Source: Escherichia phage JEP6. Taken from it: a stretch of 64,000 nt of DNA. The position numbers and the translations under genes are program-made. Shown in pieces: positions 6,632 through 43,847 of the stretch (its first letter is position 1; the number at the start of each line of letters is the position of its first letter). The notes under the pieces were generated by a model. That model had not been told where the DNA came from. It made no database searches and saw only the letters and a list, made by a program, of their open reading frames with translations. The DNA lies in sequence record MT764206.1; one strand, given 5' to 3'.

Positions 6632-7195
6632 TTACCATTCCAATGCTAGTTTTTTGAGTTGTTTCTGTTCTTTTACATTCTTAGTCACTTCTTTCAAAAA
6701 ATCATCCGTGACTAAACCTTTTAGTTCTTTTAATACTAAAGGAAGTTTTCCATTTTTAGTAAGAATTGATTTATAGTTAATTGCATCATTTGTATTAACT
6801 TGATACCGCTTAGCAAGTAACTTAATAATCAATACTTCGGTAGAATCTTCAACCAGTTTTGCCCATTTACCATATCTTTTACCCCGAGGAACAGCAGCCA
6901 TCAGATAATTAAAATGAGCTTCATCACTTAAACCTGATCCAATTAAATTCATAGCATATACAGCTGGCATGCATTCAGGAAATTGTGATAATGCATTCTC
7001 AACCATGTATTTTGAATAATCTTTTTGAGCAATAGAGCATTTAGTTTTATTATTGATCGCTCCAATTATTTCAAAAAATTCATTTTCAGCTTTTTCTTTA
7101 AAAGAATCAGCAGCGGATTGGACAGCTGTCCAATCTTTTGAATACCAAGCAACTTGATGCTCGTTTAATTGAATATCATCTTCAAATAAGCTCAT
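6632..7195 (-). CDS. 62: Clamp loader small subunit
   Basis: 187 aa, position between 44 and regA; 1-nt spacing to neighbours. Confidence 0.85.
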
Positions 7196-7196
7196 A

Positions 7197-8171
7197 TCAC
7201 TTCCACTGCATTTCGCATGCTAACTGAATGAAAAGATAAGCTAGATGCAATTCAGTATTAGCTGCAATACCATGATACTGATTATTTTCGCCGACAATTT
7301 CGTACATACGAATAATGCTCTGTGGAGTTACACGTGTATAGATTTCTTCGGCAAGTTTACCTACGAACCACGAATAATCAGCTGCATATTTTGGTGCTAA
7401 AGCTCTGAGCTGTTTAACATCTTTATTTTTGAGAGACTCAAGAACATCATCAATAGCACCACGATCGTTAGTAACCAGTGATAAAATACCAGCATCCAAA
7501 ACACCTTTAGATGAATAACTATCGAGCTCGCCAATAGTTTTACGAAAATCAGGAAAATTCTTTTTAACCAAAGCTGCTACAACTTTCATATCAGCTATAG
7601 CAATTCCTTCACGCTTGCAGATTTCAGTCAATCGACGAATCATCTGCTTCATCATTTCAATTTTATCTTCATCGGTCGGTTGACCGAATGTAATAACTCG
7701 GCAGCGTGACTGAAGTGGTTTAATAATACCATCAATATTGTTAGCAGTAATAATAATACTACAGTTTGAACTATAAGCTTCCATAAAGGAACGAAGATGT
7801 CGCTGAGACTCTGCTAACCCTGAACGGTCAAATTCATCAATAACGATTACTTTTTGACGACCATCAAATGAAGCTGCACTAGCAAAATTAGTCAAAGGAC
7901 CACGAACGAAATCAATTTTACAGTCTGATCCATTCACAAACATCATATCAGCATTTACATCATGGCACAATGCTTTTGCTACAGTTGTTTTACCTGTTCC
8001 TGGAGAAGGAGAATGAAGAATAATATGTGGAATCTTACCTTTACTTGTAATAGATTTAAAGGTTTCTTTATCAAAGGCGGGAAGAATACATTCATCGATA
8101 GTAGATGGACGATATTTCTGTTCAAGAATGTGTTCTTTTTCATTTACTGTAATCATAATTTCCTCATTCAA
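7197..8171 (-). CDS. 44: Clamp loader ATPase subunit (AAA+)
   Basis: Walker [11 protein letters not shown], Walker [12 protein letters not shown]-like motif. Confidence 0.93.
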
Positions 8172-8188
8172 GTTTTAGTGTAAATTTA

Positions 8189-8202
8189 AGGGCCGAAGCC
8201 CT
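8189..8202 (-). terminator. C(UUCG)G hairpin between 45 and 44
   Basis: agggccgaagccct. Confidence 0.5.
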
Positions 8203-8205
8203 CTA

Positions 8206-8892
8206 TTAAAAATCGTGGGTAGAATCAGCTTCAAGAGCTACTACATAATTCGCATGTTCACCTTCAAATTTAGCAGCACCTTGTTTACCTTTTGCCCAGA
8301 GCAGAAGTTTATAATTTCCTGGTTGCATTTTCATATTTGCCATATTGATAATGAAATTAAATGTATTTTCACCATCATAATCACCAAGAGTCAAAGAATA
8401 TTTAACACGGGTCAGAGCAGAATCTTCTACTTTATTAAAACCGTTAATTACGATTTTACCTTCTTTTACCGTGATAGCAATTGTATCAATTTGCAGACCA
8501 CGAGATACACGCAACAGTTGTTGAAGGTCTTCAGCTTTAATTTCAGTAACAACAGATGCTACCGGGAATGGAATTGGTTTATTAGGAGCAACTACTGTAC
8601 TCGGATCGGCTGCTGGCCAAAAAATTGTTGAGCGAGCATCAGCAATTTTAATATTACCATCTTCTGACTGGGAAATTTCTGCATCATCATTAACTAAAGA
8701 CAGAATACCGAGAAAACCGTTCAAATCGTAAATTGCTACATCAAAATCAATAACGTCAGAAATATTTGCTTCCGCATAAGTTGTACCATTAACTGCGCGA
8801 GTCATAATAAATTGACCGGATTTAAGCATAATACCGGAGTTAATAGTAGCGAAATTTTTCAAAATATTCAGTGTATCTTTAGACAGTTTCAT
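8206..8892 (-). CDS. 45: Sliding clamp
   Basis: 228 aa, MKLSKDTLNILKNFATINSGIM...; conserved position. Confidence 0.9.
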   Translation of the reverse strand: MKLSKDTLNILKNFATINSGIMLKSGQFIMTRAVNGTTYAEANISDVIDFDVAIYDLNGFLGILSLVNDDAEISQSEDGNIKIADARSTIFWPAADPSTVVAPNKPIPFPVASVVTEIKAEDLQQLLRVSRGLQIDTIAITVKEGKIVINGFNKVEDSALTRVKYSLTLGDYDGENTFNFIINMANMKMQPGNYKLLLWAKGKQGAAKFEGEHANYVVALEADSTHDF

Positions 8893-35925: not shown

Positions 35926-36215
35926 TCAGTCTCCAATTTAATGTTCATAATTCTAGCGTATGATTGTGCCATCTCCGCGCCTCGTTCTATACATTCAAAA
36001 TCAGAAGAGCACGGGTCATTTTTATAGGTCGTTCTCATAAAACTATAGAATTGTTCAGACGATTCTACGCTTTTATTTTCAAAAAGCATATAAACGTGCC
36101 TAATACCAGATTCCATAAATTTATCAAAATGAGGATCGACATTCGCTTCAATCGATGGAGATAAAACAAATGACAATCCTAGCATGGCAAATAGTGTCGT
36201 TGCTTTTAAGGCCAT
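35922..36215 (-). CDS. rI: Lysis inhibition antiholin RI
   Basis: 97 aa MALKATTLFAMLGLSFVLSPSIEANVDPHFDKF... with signal-anchor and periplasmic domain. Confidence 0.9.
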   Translation of the reverse strand: MALKATTLFAMLGLSFVLSPSIEANVDPHFDKFMESGIRHVYMLFENKSVESSEQFYSFMRTTYKNDPCSSDFECIERGAEMAQSYARIMNIKLETE

Positions 36216-36227
36216 AAAGGCCTCCTA

Positions 36228-36440
36228 TCATTTTTGCCCTGTATTTACTTTATGCCGATGCACGGCCTTAACTTTATCAAGGTATTTTTCAAAATTTCGC
36301 AATCTAGTATAGTCTGCCGGAGATTGGTTGAGTGATACTTCTCGACGCAAAGCTGAAATGATATTTCCAACTTCCCTACGAATTTCATCTAATTGAAGAA
36401 CGGTAAGATTGCGAAGTTGCTTTTCAGTTAATTGTAGCAT
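36228..36440 (-). CDS. Hypothetical protein (rI.1 position)
   Basis: 70 aa ORF. Confidence 0.5.
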
Positions 36441-36465
36441 ATATACCCCTTTAGTTAGATAAACC

Positions 36466-36473
36466 TATTTATA
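36466..36473 (-). promoter_or_regulatory. Late promoter TATAAATA
   Basis: Plus strand tatttata, 26 nt upstream of the ATG at 36440. Confidence 0.45.
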
Positions 36474-36482
36474 ACTTTTGCA

Positions 36483-37064
36483 CTAACCGAGCTTTTTAGT
36501 TAATTCATTCCAATGTTTTCTACACAAAGAAACATAAATTTCATCACCAATACAGATTTGATTACCTTCTTTAACTGGTGTTCCATCTTCCATTAATCGA
36601 GCTGTCATAATAGCTTTTTTACCACAATGACAAACTGCCTTTAGTTCAATAAGTTTATCTGCAATCGCCAAAAGTTCTTTAGAACCTTCAAATAATTTTC
36701 CAGCGAAATCAGTCCTTAGCCCATAAGCCATAACAGGAACATTATATGTATCAACAATTCGACTTAATTGATGCACCTGTTCAGTTTTTAAAAACTGAGC
36801 TTCATCTACAAATACACAATGAATATCTTTTTGTGCTTCAGCCCATTTATAGAACTCAAAAATATCCATATCATCCGTAATAATATTCGCTTCCTGCTTA
36901 ATTCCAATGCGAGAAACGACTTCACAGACAGAATCGCGAGTATCAATAGCAGGCTTAAGAACTAATACACCCATTCCGCGTTCTTTATAATTATGTGCAG
37001 CAGTCAAAAGAGAAGCAGATTTTCCAGCATTCATTGCTGCGTAAGTAAAAATTAAACTCGCCAT
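36483..37064 (-). CDS. tk: Thymidine kinase
   Basis: P-loop AMNAGKS; Zn site CHCGKK...CRKH; 193 aa. Confidence 0.93.
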   Translation of the reverse strand: MASLIFTYAAMNAGKSASLLTAAHNYKERGMGVLVLKPAIDTRDSVCEVVSRIGIKQEANIITDDMDIFEFYKWAEAQKDIHCVFVDEAQFLKTEQVHQLSRIVDTYNVPVMAYGLRTDFAGKLFEGSKELLAIADKLIELKAVCHCGKKAIMTARLMEDGTPVKEGNQICIGDEIYVSLCRKHWNELTKKLG

Positions 37065-37065
37065 C

Positions 37066-37254
37066 TTAGTCCTTAGTTAAATTTTCTAAATATGTTTTTA
37101 AATCATTTTCAGCTTTATCGATAGATTTTACTAATTCGTAATATGTTTCGGCATCTCCATATTCAGAAGATATTTCAAAAGACAAATCCTTTTCTAAACT
37201 AATAATTTCACCAACTAAAAATAATATTTCGTTCTTTTGTTCGCGAGTAATCAT
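37066..37254 (-). CDS. Small helical protein (EQ..K paralogue family)
   Basis: MITREQKNEILFLVGEI... Confidence 0.5.
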   Translation of the reverse strand: MITREQKNEILFLVGEIISLEKDLSFEISSEYGDAETYYELVKSIDKAENDLKTYLENLTKD

Positions 37255-37436
37255 AAGGAATTTATATAATCAATAAGTTCTTGTTCTTTATTATCGAATT
37301 CTTTAGAAAGTTCTTCGTACTCGTTTGCACTAAAAGGACCGCATTCATTACAAACTTTTTCCAATTCACTATTTTTATCCATAACTTCGTGGATAAGAGA
37401 AAAGAGTTTGTCTTTTTGTTCTTTGCTTAGGCTCAT
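37251..37436 (-). CDS. Small helical protein (EQ..K paralogue family)
   Basis: MSLSKEQKDKLFSLIHEV... Confidence 0.5.
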   Translation of the reverse strand: MSLSKEQKDKLFSLIHEVMDKNSELEKVCNECGPFSANEYEELSKEFDNKEQELIDYINSL

Positions 37437-37602
37437 ATATTAATTTCCAGAAGTTTTAAAATAATTCGCTTTTGCTTAAATATTTCCATAGTTAAATGAT
37501 CAGTATCTTTTTGGCCAATTCCAATGGCAAAACCTTTATTAGCAGCGAGTTCAATTAAATTATCAAGTTCACGTGACACTTCATATTGTAACTCAGAACT
37601 AT

Positions 37603-37815
37603 TCATTTCGGTTTACCTTCTTTAACGAAATCTGGATAAGGATAAAATCCCGAATAAAATCCTTCACCTTTATGATTGATGCATCCTTTATTAGAACAAT
37701 AGCACCAATAATCGAAATCACAAGCCATTTCATCGTTGCATAAAGCAAAAACAACTGGCCATTTACACTTTTCACAATGGGCATTTTTAAGAATACTAGT
37801 TTGGCTCATAACCAT
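37603..37815 (-). CDS. Cys-rich small protein
   Basis: CEKCKW...C..DEMAC...CYCSNKGC; 70 aa. Confidence 0.45.
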   Translation of the reverse strand: MVMSQTSILKNAHCEKCKWPVVFALCNDEMACDFDYWCYCSNKGCINHKGEGFYSGFYPYPDFVKEGKPK

Positions 37816-38033
37816 GTAACCTTTAAGCAGTATTCTTCTACATGCTGTTTACGACCTTTCTTATCAATAAAGGTATATTCAACGAATGTTCCAATGTAGT
37901 CTTTATCTACATCATGCGGACTATTAATTGGACATTTAGTACGGCAAATGCGTTCCCATTGACGAATAATTACTGCCTTATTCTTTGGGTCATATGGATG
38001 TGGATAATGTATATTCATAATAATGGTTCCCAA
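37806..38033 (-). CDS. Hypothetical protein
   Basis: 75 aa ORF. Confidence 0.45.
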   Translation of the reverse strand: MGTIIMNIHYPHPYDPKNKAVIIRQWERICRTKCPINSPHDVDKDYIGTFVEYTFIDKKGRKQHVEEYCLKVTWL

Positions 38034-38482
38034 TCAACAATCACAATTTCTAATTTAGAGGAATATGTATCTAAAATCCCCTCAATAATATCCCAGTTCC
38101 CTTTACCTATGCCTGCACCAATCCTAGGCATATAGATTGTAGGTTTAATCAGTTTATTTTCACCAAACTCATTTAATTCTAACATACAATTCATTAAAGC
38201 GAAATACTCAAAATTTGGCCCTGGTTGAAATTGAGTATAAAGATTAAAGCAGTAAGCTTTATGAGTCCTAAAGTATTTTTCATAGACTGAATAAGAACCA
38301 AGTTTAGTTACATCACCCCATTCAGTCTGTAGTTTATCAGCTTCCAGAATTTTAGGGAAAGCTTTGGTTAATTGACCTGCGACTCCAGCTTTCATCGTAT
38401 GAAAACAATTGCATCCATGCGCAATATTTTTACCTTCAGCGAAAAGGGCGACAATATCGCCCTTGATATATTTTACAATCAT
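38015..38482 (-). CDS. Macrodomain protein (TARG1/DarG-like ADP-ribose hydrolase fold)
   Basis: GDIVALFAEGKNIAHGCNC...AGVAGQL and YMPRIGAGIGKGNW resemble the TARG1/C6orf130 motifs (SLAHC...GAGIA; MPRIGCGLD). Confidence 0.6.
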   Translation of the reverse strand: MIVKYIKGDIVALFAEGKNIAHGCNCFHTMKAGVAGQLTKAFPKILEADKLQTEWGDVTKLGSYSVYEKYFRTHKAYCFNLYTQFQPGPNFEYFALMNCMLELNEFGENKLIKPTIYMPRIGAGIGKGNWDIIEGILDTYSSKLEIVIVDWEPLL

Positions 38483-38826
38483 TTAGTACTCAATCCTCGA
38501 TTATAAGAATCTACCAAACGGTCAACCATTGAATGACAAGCGGCTTTATCTTTCTCCTCCGCAACTGAACATTCTAAGGTATTCCACTTTTTAGCATATC
38601 GTTTTAATAATGTATCGTTTTTGTATCTGCTTGATTTATCTCTTTCTCCATCTTTATATGCATATATTAATTTCTGCGCAAATTCAGCTTGGCACGCTTT
38701 ATTTTTCCCACAATAATCTGCCGCAGTGCGGTTTACATATTCTCTAATTTCAGTATATGATGTATCTGCTGACGCAGAAGCAGAAAATGAAATTAATCCT
38801 ATACATAAAACCAAAATTTTAGTCAT
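38479..38826 (-). CDS. Secreted Cys-containing protein (vs position by order)
   Basis: Signal peptide MTKILVLCIGLISFSASASA; 115 aa. Confidence 0.5.
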   Translation of the reverse strand: MTKILVLCIGLISFSASASADTSYTEIREYVNRTAADYCGKNKACQAEFAQKLIYAYKDGERDKSSRYKNDTLLKRYAKKWNTLECSVAEEKDKAACHSMVDRLVDSYNRGLSTK

Positions 38827-38992
38827 TTACTATTTCCAAAAGTTTATTATTTTTAAGGTAATTAGCCTTTTCTAGGACTTCAGAAGCATATTTAGAACCA
38901 GCTTTAACATTCCATCCTGAATTATAAGAGGATATTGCTTTTCTTATATCGCCCTTATGTATATTTAACCAATAAGAAAGTTCAATGTACGC

Positions 38993-39364
38993 TCAGGAAG
39001 CTGAATTGGATCGTTTATTCAACATTCTTTTTATTTCAGCATCGGTCATATTATAACCAAGTTCCTTAACTCTTGCTCGCATAGTAGGCAAATAATTTTG
39101 GAACATTCCGTAGGCGTGATGCTTTGGTTTAGATTTTAAATTAACTCCGCCAGAGCTTTCTTGCCATAAAATAGCAGCCATTATATGACCTAATCCGCTC
39201 TTGTGGATATTTTTGTGTGTTTTATATTTTCCATCCTTAGAAAATTGTTCCCCGAATTGATACGCGTAACGCATGTTATCGAGTTGGACATTACTGAAAG
39301 TATGCTCGGAGCTATGTGCCATCATTGAAATGGCCAATAGACCAGCGAGTAGTGCTTTTCTCAT
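38993..39364 (-). CDS. Secreted protein with lytic-transglycosylase-like motifs
   Basis: Signal peptide; LWQESSGG ... AYGMFQ (SLT-like E-S / G-x-M-Q motifs). Confidence 0.45.
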   Translation of the reverse strand: MRKALLAGLLAISMMAHSSEHTFSNVQLDNMRYAYQFGEQFSKDGKYKTHKNIHKSGLGHIMAAILWQESSGGVNLKSKPKHHAYGMFQNYLPTMRARVKELGYNMTDAEIKRMLNKRSNSAS

Positions 39365-39371
39365 GCTTACC

Positions 39372-39833
39372 TCATTGAGTTTTAATTACTGCTTTAGAAG
39401 CCTTTCCTGGTAAACGACGACTGTTGATAATTGCCATCCTACATTGAAGTGACGGGTCTTTGAACTTCGCGTTAGGTTTACAAACTGTAAATCCAAGCCA
39501 AAGATTTCCATCTGTGATTTCTAGACGTCCAGGACGATATTCAACCCCATCAATAAAATCCTCGTCAATGTCAGGACGCGGAGGCATACTCAGGAATTCA
39601 TTAACTTCTAAAACATGGTCTTTTATTTTATGGAATAATTCAAAAACATATGTCTCATCAATCTCCCGTTGAATTGCGCGATCAAGAAGATGTTGAGAAT
39701 ATTTTAGATGAAACGATGAGACCCCTGCTGCTTTTGATGCCTCACGAATCTCATTGTTAATTTGACGAAACTCCGACTCAAAGTGACGACGAAGCTTATT
39801 TCGACGGATAAAAACTTCTGTGTTGATAGTCAT
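39372..39833 (-). CDS. regB: Endoribonuclease RegB
   Basis: 153 aa at the expected position; recognised N-terminus MTINTEVFIRRNKLRRHFESEF. Confidence 0.8.
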   Translation of the reverse strand: MTINTEVFIRRNKLRRHFESEFRQINNEIREASKAAGVSSFHLKYSQHLLDRAIQREIDETYVFELFHKIKDHVLEVNEFLSMPPRPDIDEDFIDGVEYRPGRLEITDGNLWLGFTVCKPNAKFKDPSLQCRMAIINSRRLPGKASKAVIKTQ

Positions 39834-39857
39834 GTTATTCTCCTCTTAACTGATAGA

Positions 39858-39890
39858 AAAATTATACCACAGTCAAGAGGAAAAGTAAAC
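39858..39890 (-). promoter_or_regulatory. Early promoter upstream of regB
   Basis: aaattatacca ... gtaaac. Confidence 0.5.
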
Positions 39891-39892
39891 AA

Positions 39893-40171
39893 TTATTCTT
39901 TAAATCTAATCAATTTATTCATAGACTTTGAAACTTCTGCACGAACCTCATGTAGATTTTTGAGCTGTTCAAGACGCTGCTCATAGTAAGCAATTTCATC
40001 TTCTTCGAGACAGTCCTGTGAATCTTCTTTAAGATAACGTGCATAGTCCTGGAAAGCGTTACGAACTACTTCCTGGAAGTCATCAAGACTTTGAATTTTC
40101 TTAGGAGCAACAGATACACGACGAGGGGCAGTATAATACTCATAACCAAACCCTGCGCTTAATTGAGCCAT
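39893..40171 (-). CDS. Hypothetical protein (vs.3 position)
   Basis: ATG at 40171 overlapping the upstream stop; the track start at 40213 is less likely. Confidence 0.45.
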
Positions 40172-40473
40172 TAGTATTTTTCCTCTGGTTGGAACACAGC
40201 ACGGCAAGCCCACATACTGGCTTCTTTGAGTTTCGTTTTAGCAATAGTTAACTGATCGAGGCTTTCGGCGTAATTCTTCGCGAGTTCACAGTCTTCACAA
40301 TTATCTAGTGCTTCCCAGAATTCATCGTATAAAGCATCAAAGATAAGTCCTAAACGAACTTCAGCGTCTTTGATAGCATTCACTTTACCGATTTTCTTTT
40401 CAGTATGCGGCTTATAACCCTTAATATCTTCAATCATATTTGACTTCCTCACCAGTACATAAATCATATTCAA
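40171..40473 (-). CDS. Hypothetical protein at the vs.4 position; candidate anti-CBASS Acb2 by synteny
   Basis: About 90-100 aa, third ORF upstream of regB; identity by map position only. Confidence 0.4.
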
Positions 40474-40651
40474 CTAAACGAATAGGTTCATGAATGCCAT
40501 ATCCTTGAACAGAAATTTCTGTAGTAGGATAAATTCCATCAATATCGCCCATATTCCACGCTTCATTAAATTGCTGTTCGCCTGAATTACTAAACCATTC
40601 GGCGAAAGCATTTAGCACATCTTCAGAACCTTCAATAATTATCTTTGCCAT
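40430..40651 (-). CDS. Hypothetical acidic protein
   Basis: 73 aa ORF. Confidence 0.45.
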   Translation of the reverse strand: MAKIIIEGSEDVLNAFAEWFSNSGEQQFNEAWNMGDIDGIYPTTEISVQGYGIHEPIRLVEYDLCTGEEVKYD

Positions 40652-41013
40652 TACAAACTCTCGGTAAAGGTACGAGCGATAACGTCGCGCTGCTGTTCCG
40701 GAGTCAGAGAGTTAAAGCGAACTGCATAACCGGATACACGGATGGTCAGCTGCGGATATTTTTCCGGATGCTTAACTGCATCTTCCAGAGTTTCACGACG
40801 CAGAACGTTAACGTTCAGGTGTTGACCACCTTCAATTTTAACTGTAGGCTGTTGCTCAATTTCAATTTCACGGGCATGCAAACCGTAGAAAATTTCTGGG
40901 TCTACAAAAGAGTCCTCTTTAAAGGTTTTAGAAACGATAATTCGTGCTTGAATACCATCTTCAAAATAAATAGTACCTTTATGTGTGCCTTCAAGAATTT
41001 GATATGCTTTCAT
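40651..41013 (-). CDS. Autonomous glycyl-radical cofactor (GrcA/YfiD-like)
   Basis: C-terminal [25 protein letters not shown] glycyl-radical motif; 120 aa. Confidence 0.75.
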
Positions 41014-41020
41014 ATAAACC

Positions 41021-41350
41021 TCAATTAGAAAATAAATTTATCCAAGATTGTTCTTTAATTAAAAATGGCTCAGAATCATATGCCATTAAACTCTGTGTGA
41101 TTAGTCCTTTAAAAGGCCCATCAATAAATTCCATGGTAAAATATGGAATTTTATTCATTAGCCGTGCATTAGGAGCAGTACACAAAACTCTGCATCCTTT
41201 GAATACACCTTTTTGTAATTTGTATTGCTTAGGATAAAATTCACTTAAAATGTTATTTTTTGCCAAAATTTCAAAATGATTCACCAATTTATTTTTAATA
41301 GTTTTTGGCGAAAAATAAAGATATTCGAAAAGCTGAGTGTCTGTCATCAT
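41021..41350 (-). CDS. Hypothetical protein
   Basis: ATG at 41350 overlaps the upstream stop (ATGATGA). Confidence 0.45.
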
Positions 41351-41886
41351 TGCATTCCGATTACGAAAAACTGCGGACGAGTAATACCACCAATACAACA
41401 TTTAATATTACAGCAGCAGTGTACAGTGTCAATGTGGACACTATAAATCTTATCCATATCAGGAGATTTGACAGGCTCATCAATTATATATAAAATTCGC
41501 GAAAGCGATAAACCTCTGAACTTGCTTCCTTTATTACCAATAAAACTGCGCACAGAATCAGTAAATAAACGAAAACGTATATCATCATTAGAATAACGCG
41601 AAAATTCCTTTTTAATGTTATTTGCAGAAATTTTAGCGTAAGCTGAAGTATTAGAAAGAACAATAACCGTTCCGCCATCATATAACCAATTAGCAGCAAA
41701 GTTAGTCACAGCAATTGATTTACCTGATTGACGTCCACCATCTAGTCGAAGTGTGCAATACTGTTTAAGTAAGTCTTCAAATGGTGGGACATAACCGTTC
41801 TTACAAATTTCTTCTACTCTAGCATCAGAATGGTGTGTAAAAGCATTCATCAGGGATAGATAAGGTCCAGTTAAAAATGTTCTCAT
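41347..41886 (-). CDS. Hypothetical protein occupying the denV-side position
   Basis: 179 aa; DGGRQSGKS P-loop-like segment; Cys-rich tail; no similarity to endonuclease V. Confidence 0.45.
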   Translation of the reverse strand: MRTFLTGPYLSLMNAFTHHSDARVEEICKNGYVPPFEDLLKQYCTLRLDGGRQSGKSIAVTNFAANWLYDGGTVIVLSNTSAYAKISANNIKKEFSRYSNDDIRFRLFTDSVRSFIGNKGSKFRGLSLSRILYIIDEPVKSPDMDKIYSVHIDTVHCCCNIKCCIGGITRPQFFVIGMQ

Positions 41887-41966
41887 TTAGTTTCTCTTTT
41901 AGGTTGGGCCATTCCGTGGCGCATGAATTGTCCATTTCTGTATTTACCCCTCCAAGTAATTATGAA

Positions 41967-41997
41967 TATACTATCACAATTCTAGGAGAAAGTAAAC
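41967..41997 (-). promoter_or_regulatory. Early promoter cassette copy
   Basis: tatactatca ... gtaaac. Confidence 0.5.
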
Positions 41998-41999
41998 TG

Positions 42000-42302
42000 T
42001 TATTTACCTTTAATTACTTTAGCTGCTTCGATAGCCGCTTGCTGAAGGTCATCCATAGACATACCGAATTTAGAAGCAAAGTTATCAATTTTCTTTTCGA
42101 CAGCATTCAAAGGCTTGGCCTGTTTACCTTCATTAGCGCCAGGAAGAGCGAGAATACGCTCTTTGTCAATATAAAGGCTTACAAGTTTCTTACGGTCTTT
42201 ATCGGACAAATCATGAAATGAATGGGCCTTTTTATTTATAGCGGCTTCTAATTTACCTGCACTCACTCGCGCTTCAGTAATAAATTCTTGATATGTTTTC
42301 AT
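42000..42302 (-). CDS. Internal head protein (IPII/IPIII-like) with capsid targeting sequence
   Basis: MKTYQEFITEARVSAGKLEA... CTS with L-x-E cleavage context; 100 aa. Confidence 0.7.
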   Translation of the reverse strand: MKTYQEFITEARVSAGKLEAAINKKAHSFHDLSDKDRKKLVSLYIDKERILALPGANEGKQAKPLNAVEKKIDNFASKFGMSMDDLQQAAIEAAKVIKGK

Positions 42303-42357
42303 ATGTTTCCTTTAAATGTAAATATTTTAATTGGTAATTGACTGTTTAAGTAACTGT

Positions 42358-42391
42358 GAATATATTATCACAATTCTAAGAGAAAGTAAAC
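42358..42391 (-). promoter_or_regulatory. Early promoter cassette copy
   Basis: tatattatca ... gtaaac. Confidence 0.5.
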
Positions 42392-42396
42392 TGCTT

Positions 42397-42921
<525 letters not shown>

Positions 42922-43362
42922 TTAAAAGAGGTTGTTCATTATTCGGTAAAGTGAAGGACCCATCACATATTGCCACTGAGTACGAGGAATAAGAGCAAAA
43001 GCGTCCATCTCTGGAATCATAACACCATCTTTATTTTCAAAATAAGACTCGCAATGGCAATTTCTAAACATCTCATGCTCTACTGGAATCGTATAATAAA
43101 ATAGCTGTAAGTCTTTATTACTAGAATATTTAAATACACCTAGGTCTTCTAGAAGGTCTGGATTATAATTGCTAAAACCGGTCTCTTCTAAGCATTCTCT
43201 TTTTGCAGCTTCCAGTGCATTCAAATCAGAACTTTCTACACGGCCCTTTGGAATATCCCAGCGGTGTGCCATCATTCCAGGCTTACGAGAACCAGTAACC
43301 CGACCCATAAATAAATCTTTATCTTCTGTCATAAAGATAATACCAGCTGATAAGGTTTTCAT
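42922..43362 (-). CDS. nudE: Nudix hydrolase
   Basis: Nudix box GRVESSDLNALEAAKRECLEETG. Confidence 0.8.
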   Translation of the reverse strand: MKTLSAGIIFMTEDKDLFMGRVTGSRKPGMMAHRWDIPKGRVESSDLNALEAAKRECLEETGFSNYNPDLLEDLGVFKYSSNKDLQLFYYTIPVEHEMFRNCHCESYFENKDGVMIPEMDAFALIPRTQWQYVMGPSLYRIMNNLF

Positions 43363-43847
43363 TTTAATTTCCTGCATTCAGTGATAAAGTTATTTAAATT
43401 TTGAGCATATTTCTTTTCATCAAAAATCTTTTGCTGTCTGCGTAAACGCCATGGCATTTCAATGAACATACGCCATATTCCTGATAATACTGCTGCTGTA
43501 AAAATATTAACAAGTATAGTTAAAAGAACCCAATCTCCTATTCTGTCCATTGGATTTTTTATAAAAAAGTAAAATACGAACGATGATATAGGAAGACTAA
43601 TGATATACCACAGAATAACCTTCTTATCTGTGAACCAATCGGCATTCGTTAACTTAGCGCGACCATTTTGAATACACACGAATTTATCATCTGTTACAGT
43701 AAATGGTTTAGCTGCTTGATATCCCATTCTAAACTCCCTAATTAATCGTTTCTTTGTATCTTCGGAACAACCATTCCAATCAACTCTATCAACTGAAATG
43801 CCATCATCCCCATCATCTAAATCATACCAGCGAGTTTTTAAAATCAT
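43359..43847 (-). CDS. Membrane protein
   Basis: 162 aa with two TM segments. Confidence 0.5.
   Translation of the reverse strand: MILKTRWYDLDDGDDGISVDRVDWNGCSEDTKKRLIREFRMGYQAAKPFTVTDDKFVCIQNGRAKLTNADWFTDKKVILWYIISLPISSFVFYFFIKNPMDRIGDWVLLTILVNIFTAAVLSGIWRMFIEMPWRLRRQQKIFDEKKYAQNLNNFITECRKLK

Follow-up and report, generated by a model that had tools for sequence, protein, structure and literature searches.

The question raised by this locus is what a T4-like phage does with a small protein of the macrodomain class to which the bacterial antitoxin DarG belongs. The stretch analysed, which we call the window, comprises 64,000 nucleotides from Escherichia phage JEP6 (sequence record MT764206.1). 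The gene concerned is a single ATG-to-stop open reading frame (ORF) at 38015..38482 on the minus strand, encoding 155 residues. An earlier, sequence-only reading had described the product as a TARG1/DarG-like macrodomain protein within the tk–regB gene cluster, and had suggested, among other functions, that it reverses the ADP-ribosylation of DNA by DarT-type defence toxins. The ORF, its length, and the motifs quoted in that reading are present in the ORF listing exactly as described; the product contains KGDIVALF, IAHGCNCFHTMKAGVAGQL and IYMPRIGAGIGKGNW. The source phage is a Tequatrovirus, and the ORF is tk.4, an orthology judged from near-identity to the T4 protein (152 of 155 residues, 98%, with the same length) and from the conserved place of the gene between vs and tk.3. 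The product is 100% identical to a protein of Salmonella phage SG1. Three kilobases around the gene find matches in 665 phage records, the best being SG1 (99.1%), with many Tequatrovirus genomes at 98%. The finding is real, correctly read, and already known: the T4 gene has been renamed adfM. Its product, a single macrodomain of 17.6 kDa by ORF, identity, synteny, profile and fold, is quite probably a free-standing ADP-ribosyl glycohydrolase that serves as an orphan antitoxin against DarTG2.

Sequence profiles and the predicted fold together show that Tk.4 is a true ALC1-like macrodomain, in the class of TARG1 and DarG, as the sequence-only reading had held. That reading had proposed a profile search and a structure prediction as checks, and both bear it out. 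For the single sequence the match to Pfam Macro (PF01661) is marginal (E = 8.7e-5; 22.9 bits, with a gathering score of 22; 111 residues covered). Tk.4 also matches PHROG 335 (5e-64) and, among PDB sequences, BT1257 (5e-8) as well as Poa1p, TARG1 and DarG. A family profile built from 112 Tk.4 relatives (cluster representatives) gives E values from 9e-19 to 3e-11 with solved macrodomains of this class: BT1257 (9e-19), Poa1p (9e-16), TARG1 (3e-15), SCO6735 (9e-15), and the DarG proteins of M. tuberculosis (6e-13) and T. aquaticus (3e-11). With MacroD-type viral macrodomains it reaches only about 2e-3. A reference profile made from seven proteins (TARG1, two DarG, BT1257, Poa1p, SCO6735 and PhiKZ gp104), and free of Tk.4 relatives, was run on the six-frame translation of the window, where tk.4 is its sole match (E = 1.7e-19; next best 0.038). 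The AlphaFold2 model of Tk.4, with a predicted local distance difference test score of 96.1 and a predicted template-modelling (TM) score of 0.91, alternates strands and helices and, with the Foldseek comparison, has the three-layer alpha/beta/alpha macrodomain fold. A Foldseek comparison of the model with the PDB places TARG1, Poa1p, BT1257 and both DarG macrodomains at the top, all with probability 1.00. Natural macrodomains account for 39 of the 50 best matches listed, again all with probability 1.00, and the remaining 11 were deposited as designed serine hydrolases, de novo or computational (the OSH55 series).

What the protein does has been addressed in T4 itself. That tk.4 encodes an A1pp (macro) domain has been on record since 2006 (PMC1524935), and database labels reflect it: ‘contains A1pp phosphatase motif’ in the T4 RefSeq entry, and elsewhere ‘macro domain protein’ and, in SG1, ‘high-affinity ADP-ribose binding module’. 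T4 and T2 that lack adfA and adfN remain resistant to DarTG2, and an additional anti-DarTG factor was predicted on this account (PMC11825919). In a transposon-sequencing (Tn-seq) study of T4 on a DarTG2 host, tk.4 was the sole significant gene (Humolli et al., bioRxiv 10.1101/2025.11.20.689424, November 2025 preprint); a clean tk.4 knockout was sensitized to DarTG2, and adfM was introduced as the new name of the gene (bioRxiv 10.1101/2025.11.20.689424). The earlier suggestion that the protein reverses DarT-type DNA ADP-ribosylation thus agrees with published genetics, Tn-seq and knockout alike, for an orthologue 98% identical to it. The two other functions named in that reading, breakdown of immune signals derived from ADP-ribose and tuning of ADP-ribosyltransferases encoded by the phage itself, are unsupported. 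Our literature search on Tk.4 found nothing beyond the 2006 comparative-genomics note, the 2025 preprint and one paper that mentions it in passing (PMC8573959). We infer that DNA is the substrate of the window protein, and that its allele (K31/A32/F94) acts as the T4 allele does. Phage T5 served as the DarTG2-sensitive control in the published work (PMC11825919; bioRxiv 10.1101/2025.11.20.689424). In a six-frame hidden Markov model search of the complete T5 genome, with filters off and with both the family and the reference profiles, we found no ALC1-like macrodomain (best E = 0.028 and 0.62). This absence is consistent with an anti-DarT2 role for the macrodomain, as a correlation from one phage. 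Two T5 genes, T5.102 (6948-7766) and T5.105 (8089-8595; coordinates in the T5 stretch searched), are annotated as Sir2 (nicotinamide adenine dinucleotide (NAD)-dependent deacetylase/ADP-ribosylase); the product of T5.105 is only 168 residues long, and its annotation may be doubtful.

The residues that would bind and cleave ADP-ribose can be placed by alignment. Reference sequences were taken from PDB alignments, and that of PhiKZ gp104 from its paper, and were aligned to the 112-sequence family. ADP-ribose-binding loop 1 spans codons 22-35 (HGCNCFHTMKAGVA; 38378..38419, minus strand) and includes Asn25; G23, C24, N25, C26, G33 and A35 are invariant in the family, and Asn25 aligns with DarG Asn22 and SCO6735 Asn27. 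Phosphate-binding loop 2 spans codons 119-130 (PRIGAGIGKGNW; 38093..38128, minus strand); here P119 and G124 are invariant, and I121, G122, G128 and W130 are at least 90% conserved. The Asn and GxG of the first loop and the IGxG of the second, which characterize macrodomains, are thus represented by N25, G33, G122 and G124, the first glycine of loop 1 being lysine in this allele. Between the loops lies the motif NLYTQ (codons 80-84; 38231..38245, minus strand), in which N80, Y82 and Q84 do not vary across the 112 sequences. Its last residue, Gln84, aligns with the catalytic lysines of TARG1 (K84), DarG (K80) and PhiKZ gp104, and with Gln85 of SCO6735. Gly126, in loop 2, occupies the position of TARG1 Asp125, and this residue is Ala or Gly across the family. 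The sequence-only reading had likened these loops to the substrate-binding and catalytic loops of TARG1-type macrodomains. As ADP-ribose-binding glycine loops they stand; the catalytic residues do not, Lys84/Asp125 of TARG1 and Lys80 of DarG being replaced by Gln84 and Gly126.

On account of these replacements, the chemistry of Tk.4 is more likely to resemble that of SCO6735, from Streptomyces coelicolor (PDB 5E3B), than that of TARG1 or DarG. Gln84, Asn25 and Gly124 of Tk.4 correspond in the alignment to Gln85, Asn27 and Gly128 of SCO6735, the numbering of which was verified against its paper. SCO6735 frees DarT-modified DNA of thymidine-linked ADP-ribose, for which a water-mediated, lysine-independent mechanism has been proposed; its Q85A mutant is inactive, its N27S mutant nearly so, and Asn27 positions the essential Gln85 (PMC9411070). 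BT1257 (PDB 2AFC/2FG1) is a close homologue of SCO6735 (E = 8e-54) that likewise has Gln at the catalytic position, and it is the best solved sequence match of Tk.4, yet at only about 28% identity. Both are lysine-less ALC1-like proteins that share with Tk.4 the glutamine, the positioning asparagine, the loop-2 glycine and a loop 2 of the GxAGGxW type, and both, like Tk.4, are free-standing and have no DarT partner. The family consensus of loop 2 is GIAGGDW, which resembles the GLAGGxW of SCO6735 and BT1257 and differs from the GNGGLDW of DarG. From these signature residues, a lysine-independent, SCO6735-like chemistry is likely for Tk.4. This refinement, Gln84 with Asn25, is not in the T4 preprint (bioRxiv 10.1101/2025.11.20.689424). 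In other respects SCO6735 is different: it acts in the protection of a cellular genome, whereas Tk.4 is encoded by a phage and has a counter-defence role, and it has a longer mobile loop with two lysines, Lys89 and Lys94, that are implicated in DNA binding.

Tk.4 is not a member of the DarG family proper; model scores, the missing catalytic lysine and domain architecture all speak against it. With the NCBIfam model antitoxin_DarG (NF048014) Tk.4 scores 23 bits, the cut-off being 250, and with the PADLOC DarG model 27.5 bits, where PhiKZ gp104 scores 132.9 bits. These models are 329-338 positions long, and Tk.4 matches positions 2-146 only, that is, the macrodomain part. The DarG (DarG2) macrodomains of M. 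tuberculosis (5M3I) and T. aquaticus (5M31/5M3E) share with Tk.4 the fold class and the conserved asparagine and, so far as the T4 phenotype indicates, the target chemistry (thymidine-linked ADP-ribose on single-stranded DNA). They differ in that the catalytic Lys80 of the DarG motif FPTK is Gln84 of NLYTQ in Tk.4. DarG is a protein of about 330-340 residues with a C-terminal DarT-binding domain, whereas Tk.4 has 155 residues and no such domain. DarG, moreover, is encoded beside DarT, and tk.4 is flanked by vs and tk.3. Human TARG1 (OARD1, C6orf130), the best Foldseek match of the Tk.4 model (E = 5.6e-10; TM score about 0.7), has similar glycine loops (MGAGIA, MPRIGCG), but a Lys/Asp dyad of its type is likewise rejected for Tk.4, because Lys84 and Asp125 align with Gln84 and Gly126.

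Two other phage proteins invite comparison. PhiKZ gp104, which has also been named AdfM, is a single macrodomain that counters DarTG2 and de-ADP-ribosylates a DarT2-modified TNTC oligonucleotide in vitro (Morgan et al., Cell Rep 2026, PMC13309987). It differs from Tk.4 in being of the DarG-like, lysine type, with an FPTK motif and 35% identity to M. tuberculosis DarG, and in a BLASTP comparison the two are similar over 23 residues only (E = 0.019). Judged by their sequences, the name AdfM covers two non-orthologous proteins, the Gln-type T4 Tk.4 and the Lys-type PhiKZ gp104; every Tk.4-type protein sampled has Gln in the catalytic place, and the chemistry of this group may differ accordingly from that of the PhiKZ protein. 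Phages have probably recruited two ALC1-like subfamilies, independently, for one job. T4 AdfN (gene 30.3) follows the same strategy, as an orphan antitoxin against DarTG1 that erases DarT-made DNA ADP-ribosylation; unlike Tk.4, it has a NADAR fold, is specific for guanosine-linked ADP-ribose, and has no effect on DarTG2 (PMC11825919).

The mechanism that we propose runs as follows. On infection, freed host DarT2 would ADP-ribosylate thymidines in single-stranded phage DNA, at TNTC-type motifs, and so block replication. Tk.4 would hold the ADP-ribose with both of its glycine-rich loops (residues 22-35 and 119-130) and hydrolyse the thymine–ribose bond, so that the base is restored and ADP-ribose set free. 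In this reaction Gln84, held by Asn25, would orient the distal ribose so that water can attack it, independently of lysine, as in SCO6735. Since Tk.4 has no DarT-binding C-terminal domain, the modification would be erased rather than the toxin sequestered. More speculatively, the released ADP-ribose could be disposed of by the Nudix hydrolase e.1/NudE, encoded about 4.4 kb from tk.4 (42922-43377, minus strand; PF00293, 3.8e-13); the 2002 work of Xu et al., as cited in PMC1524935, reports that T4 NudE hydrolyses ADP-ribose.

Relatives of tk.4 are widespread. By tblastn they occur in 2,721 of 50,697 phage records, which include Straboviridae of many hosts and 88-160-kb phages of Escherichia, Klebsiella, Pseudomonas, Vibrio and Bacillus, and at least 494 bacterial genomes encode them. 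We surveyed 80 bacterial loci, comprising 143 flanking ORFs found with a crude ORF caller, by means of Pfam and PADLOC, and considered the 25 most frequent families. The neighbours are heterogeneous (e.g. semialdehyde dehydrogenase, ABC and AAA ATPases, and a few NADAR and NAMPT proteins), and DarT does not figure in the 25 Pfam or PADLOC families met most often in these 143 ORFs; rarer linkages would fall outside those 25. For both reasons the cellular relatives look like free-standing proteins of the SCO6735 kind rather than the antitoxins of a conserved operon. Among the flanking ORFs are three NADAR, two NAMPT/NAPRTase and eight AbiLi-like AAA_21 ATPases (best E = 3.6e-80). There may be occasional links to ADP-ribose or NAD metabolism or to defence, and prophages may be represented in these contigs. 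A broader history may be sketched, to which we give somewhat less than even weight: phage macrodomains of the Tk.4 type would have been recruited from lysine-less, SCO6735/BT1257-like proteins and not from DarG, and would use a glutamine and water for catalysis; erasers directed against DarT2 would have evolved at least twice; and the binding-loop changes of the window allele (G31K/S32A) would possibly reflect ongoing adaptation of substrate range to DarT variants or to other nucleic-acid ADP-ribosyltransferases.

Several points weigh against the interpretation of the window protein as a DNA-directed, SCO6735-like antitoxin. The T4 preprint contains no enzymology, and says of the removal of ADP-ribose from DNA that it ‘seems likely’ (bioRxiv 10.1101/2025.11.20.689424). 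One macrodomain can have several substrates. SCO6735 binds DNA by means of an extended, Lys-rich mobile loop (Lys89, Lys94) that is missing from Tk.4; the counterpart of this loop in Tk.4 is FQPGPNFEY, with no lysine. In sequence, Tk.4 is only modestly less distant from SCO6735 and BT1257 than from TARG1 or DarG; because these distances are nearly alike, assignment to a subfamily depends on signature residues and not on a clear clade. Finally, the window protein has lysine at position 31, where T4 and every aligned, solved reference macrodomain have glycine. Three other accounts of the protein must be weighed.

The first is that Tk.4 mainly hydrolyses small ADP-ribose derivatives (ADP-ribose-1''-phosphate, O-acetyl-ADP-ribose, or immune signals made from ADP-ribose such as the gcADPR of Thoeris), its effect on DarT2 being secondary. 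Poa1p is among the best matches of Tk.4 both in sequence and in fold, and relatives bear labels such as ‘phosphatase’, ‘contains A1pp phosphatase motif’ and ‘O-acetyl-ADP-ribose deacetylase’ (the last given by JGI to several of them); these labels derive from the naming of the domain, however, and not from assays. His22 and Thr29 of Tk.4 align with Poa1p His23 and Ser30, residues that are mutated in structures 6lfs and 6lft. But a third mutated residue of Poa1p, Phe152, corresponds to a position that is Gly or Ala across the family (Gly126 in Tk.4, Ala in most members), and the family-invariant Gln84 is Ser in Poa1p. As the sole phenotype on record is specific to DarTG2 (bioRxiv 10.1101/2025.11.20.689424), we regard this account as improbable.

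The second is that Tk.4 strips ADP-ribose from proteins or RNA, where it may be Glu/Asp-linked, as in the substrates of TARG1, or laid down by Alt, ModA, ModB or host toxins, and so tunes ADP-ribosylation instead of repairing DNA. TARG1 is the top fold match, but its Lys84/Asp125 dyad for the cleavage of Glu-linked ADP-ribose is missing from Tk.4. T4 encodes three ADP-ribosyltransferases, a circumstance that speaks for such tuning; these enzymes, Alt, ModA and ModB, make Arg-linked ADP-ribose, however, and no macrodomain is known to cleave that linkage. SCO6735 does also de-modify auto-ADP-ribosylated PARP1 (PMC9411070), whereas in the T4 Tn-seq tk.4 was conditionally essential on the DarTG2 host only (bioRxiv 10.1101/2025.11.20.689424), and we consider this explanation very unlikely.

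The third concerns the allele itself. The window and T4 proteins have every family-invariant residue in common and differ at three residues: two of the changes, G31K and S32A, fall in binding loop 1, and the third is S94F; at the codon level there are 11 synonymous and 3 non-synonymous differences, a ratio that points to purifying selection on tk.4 overall. Codons 31 and 32 (38387..38392, minus strand) read AAA GCT, for Lys-Ala, where T4 has GGT TCA, for Gly-Ser. Lys31 is a natural minority form, present in 5 of the 112 cluster representatives and in 2 IMG/VR contigs as compared with 25 that have Gly, and it occurs in SG1 and in a cluster (P0001) of 122 member sequences. Because it lies within the substrate-binding loop, altered or reduced activity is possible; G31K/S32A may be adaptive or may alter specificity. 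The phenotype is known for the T4 allele only, and whether the window allele behaves like it is the main uncertainty in transferring the published function. One could argue that G31K/S32A has left the window protein a binder of ADP-ribose that is weakened or no longer catalytic, and so an inactive or re-targeted form as described for AdfA and AdfB, whose active and inactive alleles can be a single residue apart (PMC11481870). In favour, position 31 is glycine in each of the seven reference macrodomains and in 95 of the 112 family representatives, and the six contiguous bases that differ from T4 fall at exactly codons 31-32. There is little chance of it, however: the allele recurs in nature (in P0001, SG1 and the two IMG/VR contigs), purifying selection acts on the remainder of the gene, the family accommodates Lys, Ala, Asn, His and Asp alike at this position, and no invariant residue has been lost. 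For none of the three accounts is there positive evidence other than database labels and fold similarity. An antitoxin function against DarTG2, exercised by an ADP-ribosyl glycohydrolase, is the interpretation that we prefer.

The setting of the gene is that of T4. The tk–regB context named in the sequence-only reading is correct: TK (36483-37064) matches Pfam PF00265 (1.7e-60), RegB (39372-39833) matches PF10715 (1.4e-68), and the order is that found in T4 and RB32. The order common to T4, RB32 and SG1 is rI, tk, tk.1, tk.2, tk.3, tk.4, vs, vs.1, regB; RB32 and SG1 have, in addition, two small ORFs between tk.2 and tk.3. These are present in the window at 37433-37606 and 37603-37815 (minus strand), as in RB32 and SG1 and not in T4. 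One of them encodes 57 residues and has no Pfam match, and the other encodes a Cys-rich product of 70 residues that matches ‘Phage zinc binding domain’ (PF23895, 2.6e-29). On one side of tk.4 lie vs (38479-38826, minus strand), which adjoins it, and vs.1 (38819-39364, minus strand), which encodes an SLT-like protein. On the other side, the products of tk.1 (37066-37254) and tk.2 (37251-37436) both match DUF7438 (7e-15 and 6e-19) and are tandem paralogues, and that of tk.3 belongs to DUF7202 in Pfam.

Both ends of tk.4 overlap the adjacent gene by the four bases ATGA. At 38479..38482 (minus strand), read directly from the sequence, the TGA stop codon of vs overlaps the ATG of tk.4, which is consistent with translational coupling within one transcription unit; at 38015..38018 (minus strand) the overlap is between the stop codon of tk.4 and the start codon of tk.3, the latter mapped from the RB32 and SG1 annotations. 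With such overlaps at either end, tk.4 lies within a tightly packed, operon-like minus-strand array. Scans of 36000-42500 found 24 promoter-like sites, where 26.9 were expected, and 5 terminator-like sites, where 3.2 were expected, neither count being above chance; we claim no transcription-unit boundary. The one candidate site of note lies upstream of regB (39889-39861, minus strand).

The secreted neighbours mentioned in the earlier reading are borne out to the extent that Vs, Vs.1 and RI have hydrophobic, signal-peptide-like N-termini, as read from the translations. That of Vs (MTKILVLCIGLISFSASASA) seems odd for a modifier of the cytoplasmic valyl-tRNA synthetase. In the same Tn-seq study vs was the T4 gene most strongly depleted in minimal medium (bioRxiv 10.1101/2025.11.20.689424). 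The vs.1 gene of the window carries an in-frame opal stop codon at 38993-38995 (TGG to TGA, W124*), by which the 181-residue SLT-like protein is cut to 123 residues. Codon 124 is TGG in T4, and also in SG1, which is otherwise 99% identical; the stop may be a true nonsense allele or a UGA with some readthrough, or else a mistake in sequencing.

For the T-even phages, a phage-borne eraser of DNA ADP-ribosylation accounts for their resistance to DarTG2. That much is known from T4, and the value that remains in this locus lies in the Gln-type chemistry, the clash over the name AdfM, and the binding-loop allele. A lysine-less family built on Gln84 and Asn25 makes a non-covalent, water-mediated mechanism the one to consider where a DarG-like chemistry might otherwise be presumed, and natural alleles of the binding loop could matter for predicting host range on strains of bacteria that carry DarTG.

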